A stretch of 64,000 bases of DNA from Kiritimatiellia bacterium (GCA_035327585.1 DAOLDD010000004.1:93327-157326); one strand, 5' to 3'. Shown: positions 47,597 to 53,389, counted from the stretch's first letter. Program-made: numbers and translations. The notes: generated from the sequence alone by a model not told the origin.

Positions 47597-48403
47597 ATGT
47601 CGATGCAAGTTCGGTGCTGTTGCGAACTGGGTATTGCGTTGTTGGTTGTTGTCGCGCCGATGCGGGTGTTTGCCCAGAACACCATGACGCTCGACAGGGC
47701 GGTGGAGCTGTATGCAGCGGCGAAGTACGAAGATGCGGCGATCTTGCTCCAGCAGTTCACATCTTCGAATCCTGACGCTAAGGAAGGCTACTTCTGGCTC
47801 GGTCGCACGCAGATGCGTCTTCAGAACCGGGAGTCGGCCAAACAGGCGCTCCACCGCTATCTGGAACTCGTCCCGCATGGGGAGGTGCAGGTGTTCCGCG
47901 ACCTAGCGAGCCTGTATGAACAGACCAGCGAAGCCAGCTTGGCTCTGCTCTACTACCGGAAGGCACTCGATTTGGAACCGCGCAACACCCTCCTGCGCGA
48001 AGCCGTGGATCGCTTGGACCGCGCCGATGCGCCTTCAGTCATGGAGTCCCCTGCGGCCGCCATGCCCGCGTTGGCCAGCTGGGAGCGGAACCGCCCCCCC
48101 GATGAGGGGTTGGGCTTTTGGAAGAAGGGGCTGGCGGGCTTGTGCCGCGCGCGCAGCGTGTGGTGGGGCCGACTGCTTGCCGTGGCCCTCTTCGCCATCT
48201 GGCTCATCAACTCGAGTTTCAACTTCGCCCGCGTCTTGCGAGAATCGACAGTGTCCCGCGGAGTATTGCTGTTCAGCGCGGTGCCTGCCATCGCCATCCA
48301 CTACGTCCTGTATTGGGGCATTCCGCTAAACCTGATTGGATGGCTACTTCTAGGGCTGGCTTGTGCTGTGGGCATCACGGTTGTGGCCGCGCGAAGCCGC
48401 TAG
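47597..48403 (+). CDS. TPR-repeat membrane protein (signal peptide, TPR domain, C-terminal 2 TM helices)
   Basis: The start is Met at 47597 within the 47423..48403 ORF. Signal-like segment MSMQVRCCCELGIALLVVVAPMRVFAQ. TPR-like segments (AAAKYEDAAILLQQF, EGYFWLGRTQMRL, ASLALLYYRKALDLEP). Hydrophobic C-terminal helices. 9 nt upstream of the STAND gene. Confidence 0.6.
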   Translation: MSMQVRCCCELGIALLVVVAPMRVFAQNTMTLDRAVELYAAAKYEDAAILLQQFTSSNPDAKEGYFWLGRTQMRLQNRESAKQALHRYLELVPHGEVQVFRDLASLYEQTSEASLALLYYRKALDLEPRNTLLREAVDRLDRADAPSVMESPAAAMPALASWERNRPPDEGLGFWKKGLAGLCRARSVWWGRLLAVALFAIWLINSSFNFARVLRESTVSRGVLLFSAVPAIAIHYVLYWGIPLNLIGWLLLGLACAVGITVVAARSR

Positions 48404-48412
48404 GGACATAGG

Positions 48413-51400: not shown

Positions 51401-53389
51401 AGTGGAGTGATGATGGGCGCCGTCTACTGCATGGCGACCTTCCGGGAGACCGTGCTGCCGCCCCTCTTGACCCCGCTGGCCTTGCTGCGTGCCCTGGCGC
51501 GCGCCGACCTGCGCGACCTCTTGTGGGCGCGCCTGCAGCCGTTGCTGATGACGGCGCTGGCCATGAAATGGATCGTGCGCGACAAGTCGGCGGACCTGAT
51601 CGGTGATGCCGTGGAGTCGTTTGAAGACGCAATGCCGTGGACCTCCTGGGGGTTGCTACAATCGCTGAAACTATCTCGCAAGGGTTCGCCTGCAGCGACC
51701 ACGATGCACGAGTTCGAGGAGTGCATCGTCGCCCTGTACCGCGCGGCGGTATCCGCTGTGCGATTGGAGGGCGAGGAGGGGAGCGCTGTTCTCGGCGGCT
51801 ATCGCCAGCTGGTCGGCCGCGCGGAATGGCGGGATCAACCGGCCTACCTACTGGTCGTGTGGCTATGGGGATGCGTACTCCGGGAGGCGACCTTCGAAGA
51901 TGAGGCCCGGCGGCGGCTCGTGGCGATGGATCGTTCTCTTGAGTTCTTCGAGCGTGGGACTTCCGCCGGGACGGGGGGGCAACTGGAGCCGGACACACGC
52001 CTCGCAGACGAACTGCTCGCGGCAGGTCGGTACCCCGTGTGGCTCGTTTCCATGGCCCTGCGAATTCTGGGCCGTGGCCAGGCGGTTGCGGCGTTGCTGG
52101 AACGGGGTGTGGCGCGGCATGTGGATCGTGAGGTGACGGATGGTGTGCTTGGTGACTACATCACCCTACAAGCCGTGACGCCGGATCGGTTGCGCGAGGC
52201 GTCGGATCAACTCGATCGCTGCGCGCCGATTGCGGGAGTACCAAACCTGTGGGCCAAGGACGCGAAGCCAACCTGCTTTCTTCTGGGTGCGCTGTCGGTT
52301 CTGCTGCTCGCCTTCGGCCTGCCCGCCGCTGACCTGGGGCCCGCGGCCCTTTCCCTCGCGTCGGCCGGCCTGCTCGCCCTGCTGTACGACTGGAACTTCA
52401 GCGCCCTTCTGTGCCTCGGGCGCTTCCCGGAACGGCGAGCGCGAGTCGGTGCCAGCTGGCTGGCGCCCGTTCTGGGCGCGTGGTCGGCGTGCATGCTAAT
52501 CCGCGAGGCACCAGAAGCGGAAGTGTGGACGCCCGCGATCGCGTCGTGGTTCTGGGTCGCGAGTGCGTTGATCCTTTCGCTCTACGCCCTGGCGGACACC
52601 GCGAACCTTGCGAATTGGAAGCGCGTGGTTCGATGGATTGTGTTCGCAGTCCCCCTCTCTATCGCGGGCCTTGTCTGTCTCGTGCCCTACGAATTCGGAG
52701 GTCTTGTCCCGGCTGCCGGGCAGCGCGGGCTCTGGCTGGCCGGATGTCTCGCGGCAGGGTACGCCGTGTTCACCATGCACCGCTATCTGCGCGCCTGGCG
52801 GGTGGCGCGTCGGAAGTGGGAATTGCCGGATTCGTGGATCCGCCTCAACACACGTGACTTCCAGTACCGCACCAACGACCAGATTCGGGATGTCTCCGAG
52901 AGCATCCAGGATCCCCAGTTGCGGGAGCTCGTCGTCACGCTTGACCATGCCCAGCGAGCGCTGACGTCGTTTCGGCCGGGCCTCGCGAACGAACTCGTGT
53001 CTTCCCTGATCCAGCATCCCCGCTACGCGGACCTACAGCCCAGCCTGCGGGCATCCGCGTGGATTTGTCTGGCCAGCTCCGAACAGTTCCGTCGCGGCGG
53101 GAGCGAGGAGGTTGTCCGCCATGGATTCGAGGCGGCGCATCGCGAGGACCCGAGGACCTCGTGGGCTCTATCGCTACTAGGCGACTACGATCTGCGTAAG
53201 GGCCGTGTGGAACAGGCTGCCGCGGCATATACACGGGCTGTGGACATCTCGCCCTGGGATTACACCCTGCGCGAGCGGCTCGCCGACTGCCTGGCCCGCG
53301 CGGGGCGGACCGAGGAATCGCGCCACCAGTACGAGTGGGCGACCTATCTGGGAATGGTGGCGGACCCGCAGGGCAAGGCGTCACCCTGA
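48413..53389 (+). CDS. Giant STAND NTPase: N-terminal DUF4062-like (TIR-like) domain, NACHT-like P-loop NTPase, helical arrays, four embedded TM helices, C-terminal TPR
   Basis: 1658 aa. N-terminal FRIFVSSTFDDFRRERDILHAEVFPRL matches the DUF4062 FxSSTFxDL..ER motif. Walker A LLIVGGDAGAGKTALLARY. Walker B PLVIVIDAVDQMD. Hydrophobic helices lie at about aa 1285-1440 (e.g., CFLLGALSVLLLAFGLPAA, VVRWIVFAVPLSIAGLVCLVPY). C-terminal TPR-like repeats (AAAAYTRAVDISPWDYTLRERLADCLARAG). Confidence 0.65.
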   Translation: MDVWNPRDLPDEHPTFRIFVSSTFDDFRRERDILHAEVFPRLSQWCRERGARFQAVDLRWGISQALAEENLTLHVCIEEVMRCQRMTPRPHFLFMLGQRYGWRPLPREIPATRFRALLDHADEEERHLLHDEKAGWYEEDRNRQIARDGADPETAFVLCSRALPGPEGGARSIRLQEEAVLRRFLDRAAQVLGDEELLDDLCKSATQWEIDIALRGLEGEGQMVGVLRQIRGLDGALAARPPSVQALRYVDHEDGRPSAFAAARLERLKAGLQKQGLVKTIRSETDWFGNAPDEAYLPGFSREVGDALLGSMQREFERVQSFDPSHLDRAAHQRVAWSYAAAGACEGRADLLAQMGEPGSGLLIVGGDAGAGKTALLARYAAGCLAERRDVATVVRFVGLSPSTSNPAALLRSLCDEIAERYGRPAPGSDSYESLVESLLELARLADVQRPLVIVIDAVDQMDASVEPHPCAWVPTLSSPHVQIVMSVSNEFGAHAQRLAARHPAARCLNVGPLGREDARRLLDVWCAGAGRVLQEGQRELVLDAFVASGGRPLFLQLAFAQVRRWTSGTAPKMETTLPELIQAYLDRLEREHEPALVRRFLSLLVAARHGLSEGETLDLLSASDILETIQRGNPDFPPMGRLAFAIWSRMLADVEPYLQERTVEGARLYSVRNFAVREEVARRFLVGTEGEAHDRLASYFRGLADPARDGSWSGRDDPARRGFAEYPYHLQQVSHARPEPLYRLTEDRSFLEGQLQTLEALDASRELFGWVVARVLAEGDLATVIRITFRAQEFRVNLATSFFYKFFYYVDTKPRLARALTAWMADPSVRVVALLHIAYICSEQPAHHALARRILRELAELRPSPVHVNFASWVLCVLRDLVRMGFDEAQELASLVPGCPQRIACARAWDVEGHPLCSWARRLLEPPVLEVPADRVVGFHRLEREFRRGARAQDVTRVRAVATRQFLDGNRSAGFKENVEAVAAGVLMSRGMVVRSGVMMGAVYCMATFRETVLPPLLTPLALLRALARADLRDLLWARLQPLLMTALAMKWIVRDKSADLIGDAVESFEDAMPWTSWGLLQSLKLSRKGSPAATTMHEFEECIVALYRAAVSAVRLEGEEGSAVLGGYRQLVGRAEWRDQPAYLLVVWLWGCVLREATFEDEARRRLVAMDRSLEFFERGTSAGTGGQLEPDTRLADELLAAGRYPVWLVSMALRILGRGQAVAALLERGVARHVDREVTDGVLGDYITLQAVTPDRLREASDQLDRCAPIAGVPNLWAKDAKPTCFLLGALSVLLLAFGLPAADLGPAALSLASAGLLALLYDWNFSALLCLGRFPERRARVGASWLAPVLGAWSACMLIREAPEAEVWTPAIASWFWVASALILSLYALADTANLANWKRVVRWIVFAVPLSIAGLVCLVPYEFGGLVPAAGQRGLWLAGCLAAGYAVFTMHRYLRAWRVARRKWELPDSWIRLNTRDFQYRTNDQIRDVSESIQDPQLRELVVTLDHAQRALTSFRPGLANELVSSLIQHPRYADLQPSLRASAWICLASSEQFRRGGSEEVVRHGFEAAHREDPRTSWALSLLGDYDLRKGRVEQAAAAYTRAVDISPWDYTLRERLADCLARAGRTEESRHQYEWATYLGMVADPQGKASP

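Follow-up and report, generated by a model that had tools for sequence, protein, structure and literature searches.

A two-gene locus of a Kiritimatiellia bacterium encoding a predicted membrane-embedded DUF4062-NACHT STAND protein and an adjacent TPR membrane protein

The DUF4062 domains of KpSwz and human TEP1 were shown to hydrolyse NAD+ in a Glu-dependent manner (bioRxiv 10.64898/2026.05.01.722283). [quoted passage not shown] In experiments, KpSwz (Swarozyc) and Eva01 (Evangelion) depleted NAD+ and led to abortive infection (10.64898/2026.05.01.722283; 10.64898/2026.06.25.731849), and defence is also conferred by the Eva01 DUF4062 (10.64898/2026.06.25.731849). A second relevant group is formed by bacterial NACHT proteins with transmembrane (TM) C-terminal regions, a described class in which these regions are classed as sensors (Kibby et al. 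preprint) and are proposed to recognise intramembrane or periplasmic signals (Kibby et al.); the class is defined by architecture alone (Kibby et al.; Kaur et al. 2020/2021). TM-bearing bacterial NACHTs and DUF4062-NACHT fusions are categories that are already known, so the locus described below varies a familiar kind of protein.

The locus lies in a 64,000-nucleotide stretch of Kiritimatiellia bacterium DNA (the window) and consists of two genes on the (+) strand, a partner gene at 47597-48403 (268 aa) and a STAND gene at 48413-53389. The latter encodes, from an ATG start, a protein of 1658 aa with the order DUF4062–NACHT–winged helix–helical array–six TM helices–TPR; NCBI has the identical protein under the name 'DUF4062 domain-containing protein [Kiritimatiellia bacterium]'. 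Both the 1658-aa reading frame and its 9-nt distance from the upstream gene had been part of the original prediction and hold true. The gap (48404-48412, ggacatagg), read directly between the partner stop codon TAG and the STAND ATG, suggests co-transcription and translational coupling of the two genes. The start of the partner at 47597 (MSMQVRCC...) agrees with the starts of its homologues; a longer partner ORF from 47423 is probably unused. Comparison with an 85%-identical orthologue gave dN/dS values of 0.11-0.39 for both genes, i.e., purifying selection, and thus these are real genes and not chance ORFs.

The N-terminus of the STAND protein had been assigned to DUF4062 from its opening motif, and profile searches agree. 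The TIR-like domain, which carries an NWD1-type insertion, occupies aa 15-340 (48455-49432, +), and Pfam PF13271 matches aa 17-105 with 35.8 bits against a gathering score of 24.7. A 12-sequence family profile matches the crystal structure of the TEP1 TIR-like domain (PDB chain 11gz_A) with E=1.9e-35. In this alignment E209, the last residue of the motif S204-A-T-Q-W-E209 (codon 49037-49039), falls on TEP1 E1008, the experimentally catalytic Glu, which is residue E115 of the 11gz_A chain (the chain numbering is shifted by 893, as worked out from R908, R954 and R976). E209 is invariant across 47 homologues and is a candidate catalytic Glu, equivalent to TEP1 E1008 and KpSwz E97. Of the three arginines in the TEP1 active site, R976 alone has an Arg counterpart in the STAND protein, R99 in the RYG motif; R908 and R954 are replaced by D25 and L71, respectively. 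The AlphaFold2 (AF2) model of the domain (pLDDT ~90) has alternating beta-alpha elements and places E209 at the start of a helix. The STAND head is thus predicted to be an NAD+-destroying effector, and it would act as an NADase. It shares with KpSwz and Eva01 the effector superfamily, the FxSStF start and the catalytic Glu motif, although the match of KpSwz to the family profile covers residues 4-23 only (E=0.023). Unlike the STAND protein, KpSwz and Eva01 are single-gene systems whose proteins, ~300 aa long, have a helical auxiliary stalk but neither an NTPase nor a membrane domain.

The effector candidate is followed by a NACHT nucleotide-binding domain (aa 350-530, 49460-50002, +; Pfam NACHT, AAA_16 and NPHP3_N), for which PF05729 scores 32.0 bits against a cut-off of 26.7. 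The Walker motifs, read directly, are intact, as had been predicted: Walker A is GDAGAGKT (aa 367-374, 49511-49534) and Walker B is LVIVIDAVDQ (aa 452-461, 49766-49795), with G367, G370, G372, K373 and D457 invariant among homologues. An NWD1-like winged-helix domain comes next (aa 575-688, 50135-50476, +), recognised both in the AF2 model and by PF25469 (HTH_NWD1, 29.8 bits, cut-off 27). A fold search with a 759-aa AF2 model that includes the DUF4062 domain is dominated by STAND matches; the best Foldseek matches of the N-terminal model (pLDDT 88.7) are Apaf-1 (E=1.1e-08), MalT, NLRC4 (E=2.8e-07), plant NLRs and Avs4, with STAND matches overall at ~1e-8 to 1e-6. The N-terminal ~750 aa share 31-37% identity with dozens of bacterial homologues and follow the same order as human NWD1, NWD2, NPHP3 and TEP1, with a DUF4062 domain bearing a WY..D.N insertion, a NACHT domain and an NWD1-type winged helix. 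By sequence, this part of the protein belongs to the NWD1/TEP1-like DUF4062-NACHT lineage, and since no PADLOC/Avs model matches, the earlier label 'Avs-type' has to be given up. The logic of effector, STAND NTPase and repeat sensor, together with a similar NTPase core, is common to Avs and Apaf-1/NLR-type STANDs; unlike Avs, the protein has an NTPase of NACHT type and a membrane-embedded sensor half.

The C-terminal half departs from the NWD1/TEP1-like DUF4062-NACHT-WD40 proteins: there is no WD40 match and hence no propellers, and their place is taken by a helical array, six TM helices and a TPR domain. In contrast to those proteins, the STAND protein is predicted to span the membrane and to have membrane partners of its own. 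The all-helical, ARM/TPR-like array (aa 760-1280, ~520 aa, 50690-52252, +) belongs to no Pfam family and a PDB sequence search gave no match to it; weak TPR-S and TPR_12 matches occur in the array of relatives. The phmmer matches P0125, P0127, P0132, P0148, P0164 and P0169 cover the array, which is common to the TM clade only and which presumably serves as a sensor or an autoinhibitory scaffold.

Between the array and the terminal TPR the original prediction placed about 150 aa of hydrophobic sequence with four TM helices. The hydrophobic helices are there, but the block measures ~170 aa (aa 1286-1456, 52268-52780, +) and six helices are counted instead of four: TM1 1286-1306, TM2 1310-1333, TM3 1346-1364, TM4 1373-1395, TM5 1406-1427 and TM6 1439-1456. 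TM counts for both the STAND protein and the partner are based on Kyte-Doolittle hydropathy, charge bias and AF2 secondary structure, with alignments A2, A3 and A6 used in addition for the STAND domain, which has no matching Pfam family. Across 11 homologues, K+R against D+E is 38/16 in loop 2, 20/0 in loop 4 and 50/15 in the tail after TM6, and 3/4, 7/13 and 8/9 in loops 1, 3 and 5, respectively. This positive-inside pattern predicts an N-in/C-in domain, with cytoplasmic NACHT and TPR domains on either side and periplasmic loops of 3-11 residues only. It is extremely unlikely that the hydrophobic stretch forms instead helices buried inside a soluble repeat domain, with nothing in the membrane. 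Such an arrangement would fit the moderate hydropathy of TM2 and TM3 (Kyte-Doolittle ~1.57-1.58) and the low AF2 confidence over the region (pLDDT 40-70, helices present). However, each of the six segments has a TM-like length of 18-24 residues, their positions are kept in homologues that are 15-22% identical to the window protein there, the hydropathy peaks of relatives rise to 2.1-2.8, successive loops alternate in their charge bias, an interfacial motif rich in Trp/Arg lies after TM2, and the genes adjoining the STANDs of this clade always encode small membrane proteins. The prediction of a membrane-anchored STAND is thereby strengthened. The claim that it is unique in this respect was too strong: the six predicted C-terminal helices place the protein in the bNACHT 'TM regions' class of Kibby et al., with which it shares multiple TM helices after the NACHT domain and an N-terminal effector, here a predicted one, that targets NAD+, and ~7% of 120 listed DUF4062-NACHT homologues bear TM clusters.

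The C-terminal module nevertheless marks a rare clade, defined by the helical array, a six-TM domain with D(TM2)...PE..R...G(TM6) and a fused or adjacent TPR. The alignments A2, A3 and A6 place the window protein in it. Searches of 1.84 billion representative proteins together with contig scans recovered about a dozen loci, from Kiritimatiellia, Verrucomicrobiae, Longimicrobiales and metagenomes (phmmer matches P0125, P0127, P0132, P0148 and P0164, with L006-L010 added by pattern scans). The clade did not turn up on plasmids or viral contigs, which weighs against a defence role. To our knowledge, no tested bNACHT seems to belong to this clade. The invariant residues are D1326 in TM2 (52388-52390), P1339-E1340 (52427-52432) and R1344 (52442-52444) in cytoplasmic loop 2, and G1444 in TM6; the retention of D1326, PE and R1344 at 15-22% identity argues for the TM domain being more than an anchor. 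The cytoplasmic TPR domain that follows (aa ~1490-1648, ~4-5 repeats, 52880-53356, +), whose TPR matches exceed the Pfam cut-offs, is homologous to separate TPR-anchor proteins encoded downstream of 'short' clade members, which end after the TM domain and are followed by this TPR-anchor gene and a third gene for a membrane protein. Judged from these sequences, the membrane-anchored TPR that is separate in the short form and fused in the long form is a case of gene fusion/fission.

All 'long' members, in which the TPR is fused, have a partner upstream. In the window this protein, for which two TM helices had been proposed, retains the expected signal peptide, TPR and membrane helices but has three of the latter. 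A Sec-type signal peptide (aa 1-26, ...VFA|QN) precedes about three TPRs (aa 30-136, Pfam TPR matches), a Pro/Ala-rich linker, the amphipathic motif GFWKKGLAGLCRARSVWWGRLL and three C-terminal hydrophobic helices (aa ~190-265, hydropathy). Its TPR is predicted to be periplasmic and its C-terminus cytoplasmic. In L001, L002/L005 and L010 the STAND gene is preceded by a homologue of the same signal peptide-TPR-3TM layout; a Longimicrobiales MAG and a soil-type metagenome contig each have one directly upstream, 33.9% and 42.9% identical to the window partner, respectively, and two further contigs have a same-strand upstream TPR gene of 270-289 aa. This cross-phylum synteny supports the proposal of a two-component unit, and the two proteins may interact physically.

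What the membrane half contributes can be viewed in two ways. It is possible, if on the improbable side, that the six helices simply tether a conventional cytoplasmic pattern-recognition STAND, which would respond by NAD+ hydrolysis once its array and/or TPR had bound a phage protein, either soluble or close to the membrane, as Avs and bNACHT proteins do. The partner would then stabilise or localise the STAND and would not be a sensor. Bacterial STANDs that have been characterised recognise phage proteins (PMC13581612), a helical/TPR array of >500 aa is where STANDs usually bind their ligands, the periplasmic loops are tiny, and the accessory domains of short-form operons are all cytoplasmic; since the short-form relatives have no periplasmic component, a periplasmic signal is not a universal input of the clade. 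At the same time, six TM helices with an invariant D1326 and PE..R loop exceed the needs of anchoring, the membrane partners are conserved, one of them with a signal peptide and a periplasmic TPR, and the TPR after the TM domain is separable as a membrane-anchored protein of its own.

TM modules are common effectors of abortive infection, as in CBASS, Pycsar and retron effectors. By analogy, NACHT-driven oligomers could form a six-TM pore or otherwise disrupt the membrane, with the DUF4062 domain as a second effector or an interaction domain. The invariant intramembrane Asp and the conserved Gly of the TM domain would suit this role, as would the in vitro inactivity of the NWD1, NWD2 and NPHP3 domains. 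We consider it quite unlikely, given the strict retention of the catalytic Glu and the RYG Arg, the TPR that follows the TM domain, the classification of TM regions as sensors by Kibby et al., and the conserved membrane partners, which suggest a stable resident complex and not an inducible pore.

The genomic surroundings bear on whether the unit serves defence at all. The locus is part of a low-GC3 island that includes genes for AbiEi/AbiEii (PADLOC 7.6e-49 and 1e-61), RelA_SpoT-RyR (PDC-S33), NUDIX (PDC-S07), TIR-NB-ARC-TPR and a HerA-like ATPase; the Longimicrobiales locus L002 adjoins ThiF, JAB and nSTAND3-AAA genes, and the P0127 locus adjoins another DUF4062-NACHT-WD40. The upstream neighbours in Kiritimatiellia, however, are MraZ-like, HPr-like and FtsW-like and not defence genes. 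They separate the pair from a possible accessory gene (41124-42812, -) for a 562-aa sigma-54-activator-like AAA+ protein (Pfam Sigma54_activat), in which the GAFTGA motif is missing and no HTH was detected. Its homologue at L002:4945-6630 (30% identical, BLASTP E=1e-50 over 494 aa) is directly divergent from the partner gene. Such an EBP-like gene is also present in L001. Alternatively, then, the pair could form a housekeeping or regulatory membrane complex acting in envelope, division or metabolic control, possibly together with the AAA+ protein and comparable to what eukaryotic NWD1 and NPHP3 do outside immunity. The retention of the atypical AAA+ gene near the pair in two phyla and the intervening genes speak for such a role. 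So do the uniform purifying selection on all STAND and partner domains, with no hypervariable sensor region, and PADLOC, which has no model for either gene and returns a sole match of the STAND TPR region to PDC-M16B (E=0.02). Still, this is unlikely: the distribution over about a dozen loci (too few for statistics on defence-island enrichment) is patchy and cross-phylum, the usual pattern for accessory genes that move horizontally, the locus sits inside a compositionally foreign island, defence genes adjoin all three long contexts, the EBP-like gene is missing in two of four independent contexts (near L010 and P0127), and the NADase catalytic residue is kept.

Our preferred reading, which we hold tentatively and at somewhat less than an even chance, is that the two genes form one operon for an inner-membrane NLR-like conflict sensor, probably with an anti-phage/abortive-infection role. 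The DUF4062 domain would be the effector, the NACHT-winged-helix module a nucleotide-driven oligomerisation switch, and the C-terminal half (array, six-TM domain and cytoplasmic TPR) the input, while the partner would place a TPR in the periplasm and three helices beside the STAND TM domain. At rest, the C-terminal half would keep the NACHT module closed. An event at or across the membrane, which may be envelope damage, phage entry or the binding of a membrane-proximal phage protein by the helical/TPR arrays, would be perceived via the TM domain and the partner and would release autoinhibition. Nucleotide exchange would then lead to oligomerisation within the plane of the membrane, which may in turn activate NAD+ hydrolysis. 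Both the defence function and the nature of the trigger are inferred. In the literature we found no description of the six-TM D..PE..R domain, of a DUF4062 head joined to this domain, of the signal peptide-TPR-3TM partner or of the TPR fusion/fission. If the preferred reading is correct, the two-gene unit, which recurs in unrelated phyla, would represent a rare variant of bacterial NLR-type defence proteins.

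The gene of the 1658-aa STAND protein (48413..53389, + strand) is preceded by that of a 268-aa TPR membrane protein, the partner (47597-48403, + strand), and the two ORFs are separated by 9 nt (ggacatagg) in a window whose GC content is high (about 65%). The partner ORF can also be read from 47423, which gives 326 aa. This longer version was rejected because every homologue starts at the signal peptide, always at the position of the 47597 ATG and with a signal-peptide-like sequence (MSMQVRCCCELGIALLVVVAPMRVFA|QN); the start at 47597 chosen in the original prediction is thus the better one. 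NCBI holds an identical 1658-aa protein ('MAG TPA: DUF4062 domain-containing protein [Kiritimatiellia bacterium]'), and a second assembly, GCA_964388845.1, encodes an orthologue of equal length that is 85% identical to the STAND protein. Compared with this orthologue, the STAND domains have dN/dS values of 0.15-0.27, and in the partner the value is 0.11 over the TPR and 0.39 over the TM region. Purifying selection thus acts on each domain of the two genes, which are real and maintained. PADLOC and NCBIfam scans returned nothing specific for either protein. In the 347-nt leader 5' of the partner gene there is no Rfam match, no sigma-70-like promoter and no convincing sigma-54 promoter. The leader is mostly diverged from the corresponding sequence (~9040-9160) of L001, a syntenic Kiritimatiellia contig, with two well-conserved blocks at 47468-47502 and 47550-47596 (an example of conserved leader sequence is CCTTC..T.TTGC.TTCAT.GCA..GTTCTTGTAC), and it is possible that these blocks are promoter or operator elements.

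In the STAND protein, Pfam recognises DUF4062 (aa 17-105; 35.8 bits, cut-off 24.7), AAA_16, NACHT and NPHP3_N (aa 350-530; NACHT 32.0 versus 26.7), an NWD1-type winged helix (aa 575-688; 29.8 versus 27) and TPR (aa 1585-1640), and both Walker A (GDAGAGKT, aa 367-374) and Walker B (LVIVIDAVDQ, aa 452-461) motifs are present. With 47 homologues as input, AF2 gives a confident model of aa 1-759 (pLDDT 88.7, pTM 0.88), and its best PDB matches are Apaf-1, MalT, NLRC4, plant NLR resistosomes, RPP1, NLRP3 and Avs4; as modelled, this part of the protein contains a STAND NTPase core. The helical array that follows (aa 760-1285) has no PDB sequence match. DUF4062 was identified as a TIR-like NADase in two 2026 preprints (10.64898/2026.05.01.722283; 10.64898/2026.06.25.731849), and KpSwz and Eva01 were found to confer abortive-infection defence (10.64898/2026.05.01.722283; 10.64898/2026.06.25.731849), while NWD1, NWD2 and NPHP3 were inactive after purification (10.64898/2026.05.01.722283). 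A profile of the N-terminal family (12 sequences) matches the crystal structure of the TEP1 TIR-like domain (11gz_A) with E=1.9e-35. When the chain numbering of 11gz_A is anchored on the published R908, R954 and R976 (offset 893), the S-A-T-x-x-E motif of the family is aligned with S-V-T-E-M-E1008 of TEP1, which ends in the catalytic glutamate, and the counterpart in the STAND protein is E209 (KSATQWE). Both E209 and the RYG arginine R99 (R976 of TEP1) are invariant in 47 homologues; R908 and R954 are not kept in the STAND protein (D25 and L71). An insertion of ~78 residues with a WY..D.N motif lies between strand C and the catalytic helix and is characteristic of the NWD1-like lineage.

In a Kyte-Doolittle scan, aa 1286-1456 stand out as a hydrophobic block, within which six segments of 18-24 residues are poor in charges. 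Over this block, AF2 (7-sequence MSA, with a pLDDT of only 40-70 here) predicts six long helices (aa 1275-1305, 1310-1332, 1350-1365, 1374-1399, 1404-1428 and 1434-1469) and an extra short helix over PERRARV. Counted in the 11-sequence family alignment, the charge alternates from loop to loop along the domain: K+R and D+E residues number 3 and 4 in loop 1, 38 and 16 in loop 2, 7 and 13 in loop 3, 20 and 0 in loop 4, 8 and 9 in loop 5, and 50 and 15 in the 20 residues after TM6. This pattern is a positive-inside signature and predicts an N-in, six-span, C-in arrangement, the sole topology that places the NTPase and the TPR both in the cytoplasm; the predicted periplasmic loops of the STAND protein have 3-11 residues. 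Since hydropathy, AF2 helices and the positive-inside alternation agree, six helices are predicted instead of the four that had been proposed. To our knowledge, the bacterial STAND/NLR-like defence proteins characterised so far are soluble and sense phage proteins inside the cytoplasm. For the STAND protein described here, a soluble fold with the hydrophobic helices buried is extremely improbable, and the same three predictions favour the original transmembrane reading. D1326 (inside TM2), P1339-E1340 and R1344 (cytoplasmic loop 2) and G1444 (TM6) are invariant in family alignments, despite a TM-region identity to the window protein of merely 15-22%, and in most members the motif takes the form GGLLDLxIWxxxGLWxxPExSRR. 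The domain is covered by no Pfam family. A SpoIIGA match in one member (E=0.044) was treated as chance.

A word-indexed search found 135 homologues, all of which, except the two Kiritimatiellia proteins, align to the N-terminal ~45% only; most of these carry WD40 repeats (NWD1/TEP1-like). When aa 760-1658 were compared by phmmer with 1.84 billion representative proteins, the matches were mostly to the TPR alone, and six proteins also align outside it: P0125 (1668 aa, query 19-861, E=4e-18), P0127, P0132, P0148, P0164 (1648 aa, from a Longimicrobiales (Gemmatimonadota) MAG) and P0169. All six have the DUF4062-NACHT N-terminus, and all except P0169 have a cluster of 5-6 hydrophobic helices at the equivalent position. 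Scanning DNA with the degenerate pattern G...DL.[ILV]W....[LV]W..PE.S.R added a Verrucomicrobiae MAG locus (L006) and metagenome contigs L007-L010; a further match, L011, lacks TM segments and was rejected as chance. The size of the clade is a lower bound, since the pattern cannot detect the divergent motif of the Kiritimatiellia type. Searches of plasmids and viral contigs found no relatives. By these comparisons, the 6-TM block is a conserved domain, and the clade that it marks out is rare. TM clusters also occur in other DUF4062-NACHT proteins (P0030, P0055, P0093 and others; 8 of the 120 homologues listed). The number of strongly hydrophobic segments in P0030, P0055, P0093, P0043, P0091 and P0102 varies from 2 to 10 and their positions differ (for example, inserted at ~aa 930-980 or clustered at ~1350-1540). 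By hhalign, the TM regions of P0055 and P0030 have no detectable kinship with the clade domain (probability about 1%). A single large TM-STAND family was therefore rejected, and the DUF4062-NACHT lineage appears to have acquired membrane insertion on more than one occasion.

The members of the clade are found in two types of operons. In the long members (the window protein, P0002, P0125 of locus L010, P0127 and P0164) the C-terminal TPR is fused to the membrane domain, and a gene for a TPR protein of 268-299 aa lies immediately upstream on the same strand. Wherever the DNA could be compared, this protein is homologous to the window partner, with 71% identity in L001, 33.9% (E=2e-29) in the Longimicrobiales locus L002 and 42.9% (E=9e-50) in L010. 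All of these proteins begin with a signal peptide, which is followed by about three TPRs and a Pro/Ala linker; next come the motif GFW..GLAG...AR.VWWGR(L/V)L and a set of three hydrophobic helices. Their charge distribution predicts that the TPR is periplasmic and that the loop and the C-terminus are cytoplasmic. The short members, P0132 (L003), P0148 (L004), L006, L008 and L009, end just past TM6 and are without the upstream partner of the long type. Instead, each is followed 3' by a gene whose product (229-495 aa) is a cytoplasmic TPR protein anchored in the membrane at its C-terminus. Identity among these products is 48-60%, and with the fused TPR of P0164 it is 38%. A third conserved gene comes next in five loci of the short type (L004 5466-6332, L006 1414-2400, L007 5685-6803, L008 3250-4317 and L009 3648-4208; the L003 contig stops before it could show). 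Its products are 29-47% identical to one another and belong to no Pfam family; an N-terminal TM helix precedes a ~300-aa helical domain, and the motif DAELPLP lies C-terminally. In the metagenome contig L007, the STAND part (282-3932, 1216 aa, DUF4062-NACHT-helical) and the 6-TM domain (3959-4672, 237 aa) are in separate reading frames; either the gene is truly split or the assembly contains a frameshift. The fusion and fission of the TPR tie it functionally to the membrane STAND, and the existence of two operon types makes dedicated small membrane proteins a constant feature of the clade.

The pair is located in an island of ~26.5 kb delimited by low GC3: every gene at 33906-60345 has a value of 0.72-0.80, and the housekeeping genes on either side, for carbamoyl-phosphate synthase upstream and an aminotransferase downstream, have 0.83-0.92. 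The island is compositionally foreign and contains many conflict-type genes. At its edges, neither a tRNA gene nor an integrase was noticed. It includes a HerA/mad8-like ATPase, another AAA protein and a sigma-54-activator-like AAA+ protein (EBP-like; 41124-42812, - strand). The latter recurs in L002 (4945-6630, - strand), directly divergent from the partner gene, and the two copies, from two phyla, are 30% identical over 494 aa. Neither contains GAFTGA (L002 has GAHNAA there), no HTH was detected, and unassigned helical regions are present N-terminally (~190 aa) and C-terminally besides the AAA part, to which the best PADLOC match, RtcR_PspF2 (CARF_AAA_HTH), is confined. The EBP-like gene is absent from L010 and the P0127 contig. 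MraZ-like, HPr-like and FtsW/RodA-like genes (43715-45574) lie between the EBP-like and NUDIX genes, an odd placement of cell-division-type and PTS-type homologues inside a low-GC3 island; the FtsW/RodA-like product has 353 aa and a partial Pfam match, the L001 counterpart genes are at 5997-7728, and an overlapping, alternative 463-aa ORF (44827-46218) has a DnaA-ATPase match. The NUDIX hydrolase (46759-47250, 163 aa; PADLOC candidate PDC-S07, 2.5e-23) is encoded just upstream of the partner in the window and L001 and is absent from other clade loci; it could be functionally linked to the adjoining predicted ADP-ribose-producing NADase. On the other side, an AbiEi antitoxin gene (53576-54217; PADLOC 7.6e-49, without a Pfam match) and an AbiEii nucleotidyltransferase toxin gene (about 54214-55095; PADLOC 1e-61) sit between the STAND gene and a RelA-RyR gene. 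The AbiE pair is missing in the otherwise syntenic L001 and is therefore a recent insertion. The RelA_SpoT-RyR protein (837 aa; PADLOC candidate PDC-S33), which has a RelA/SpoT nucleotide pyrophosphokinase domain at its N-terminus and a RyR domain at its C-terminus, and the TIR_2-NB-ARC-TPR STAND (918 aa) encoded immediately 3' of it (55055-60345 together) are kept in L001 (15239-20533) and may be a second, separate two-gene conflict system. The Longimicrobiales locus adjoins ThiF (E1-like), Prok-JAB and nSTAND3/AAA genes together with several unannotated small genes (L002 1-4702), a cluster that resembles ubiquitin-like conjugation conflict systems, and the P0127 locus adjoins another DUF4062-NACHT-WD40 gene and a TPR-S protein gene. 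With such neighbours, a signalling role of the pair outside defence is unlikely.

The best-supported reading is that the pair is a two-protein, inner-membrane NLR-like conflict system, for which we infer the defence function, the NADase activity, the partner interaction and the trigger. The N-terminal DUF4062 domain is the predicted TIR-like NADase effector, which according to the literature is activated by oligomerisation, the NACHT module would be the switch, and the input side would comprise the helical array, the 6-TM domain, the TPR and the membrane partner with its periplasm-facing TPR. Alternatively, the TM domain itself could be a pore-forming effector, which is quite improbable next to the DUF4062 head with its invariant glutamate. 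It is also conceivable that the domain is an anchor only and that a membrane-tethered STAND senses in the cytoplasm, where its NTPase and TPR are predicted to be; we consider this rather unlikely, because the invariant polar residues, the count of six spans and the existence of dedicated membrane partners speak for a signalling role beyond anchoring. In the conflict-system reading, the pair may be a true outside-in transmembrane NLR, a tentative and somewhat unlikely version. The periplasmic TPR of the partner would detect an envelope-side event (candidates are a molecule secreted by a competitor, damage to the cell wall, and the adsorption or injection step of a phage), the signal would cross a 9-helix intramembrane complex (3 + 6 TM) through the TM2 Asp and the PE..R hinge, and the cytoplasmic NACHT switch would then turn on the TIR-like NADase. 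Since the short-form operons are without a periplasmic domain, an event in the membrane or close to it is a more likely input for the clade as a whole than a periplasmic ligand as such.

The DUF4062-NACHT architecture is already known (NWD1, NWD2, NPHP3, TEP1 and bacterial TEP1-like proteins), and so is the enzymology of DUF4062 (10.64898/2026.05.01.722283). 'TM regions' are a known C-terminal sensor class of bacterial NACHT proteins, for which intramembrane or periplasmic signals were proposed (Kibby et al. preprint), and neither DUF4062 preprint mentions transmembrane segments (10.64898/2026.05.01.722283; 10.64898/2026.06.25.731849). In the literature searched, we found no description of the conserved 6-TM domain of the clade, of its joining to a DUF4062 head, of the SP-TPR-3TM partner or of the dichotomy of long and short operons with fusion and fission of the TPR.

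The clade unites a recently validated NAD+-destroying effector, a NACHT switch and a conserved multi-pass membrane domain that has dedicated membrane partners, one of them predicted to face the periplasm. With two genes in 5.8 kb the system is compact; it is conserved across phyla, lends itself to direct tests and connects with the eukaryotic NWD1, NPHP3 and TEP1. If functional as proposed, it would reveal the workings of NLR-type oligomerisation in the two dimensions of a membrane and would tell whether bacteria are able to couple envelope-side sensing to NLR-type cell suicide. If the outside-in reading is true, the pair would parallel, in bacteria, surface-receptor-coupled NLR signalling, and it would be the first STAND shown to perceive a signal across a membrane while all phage components are still outside the cytoplasm.
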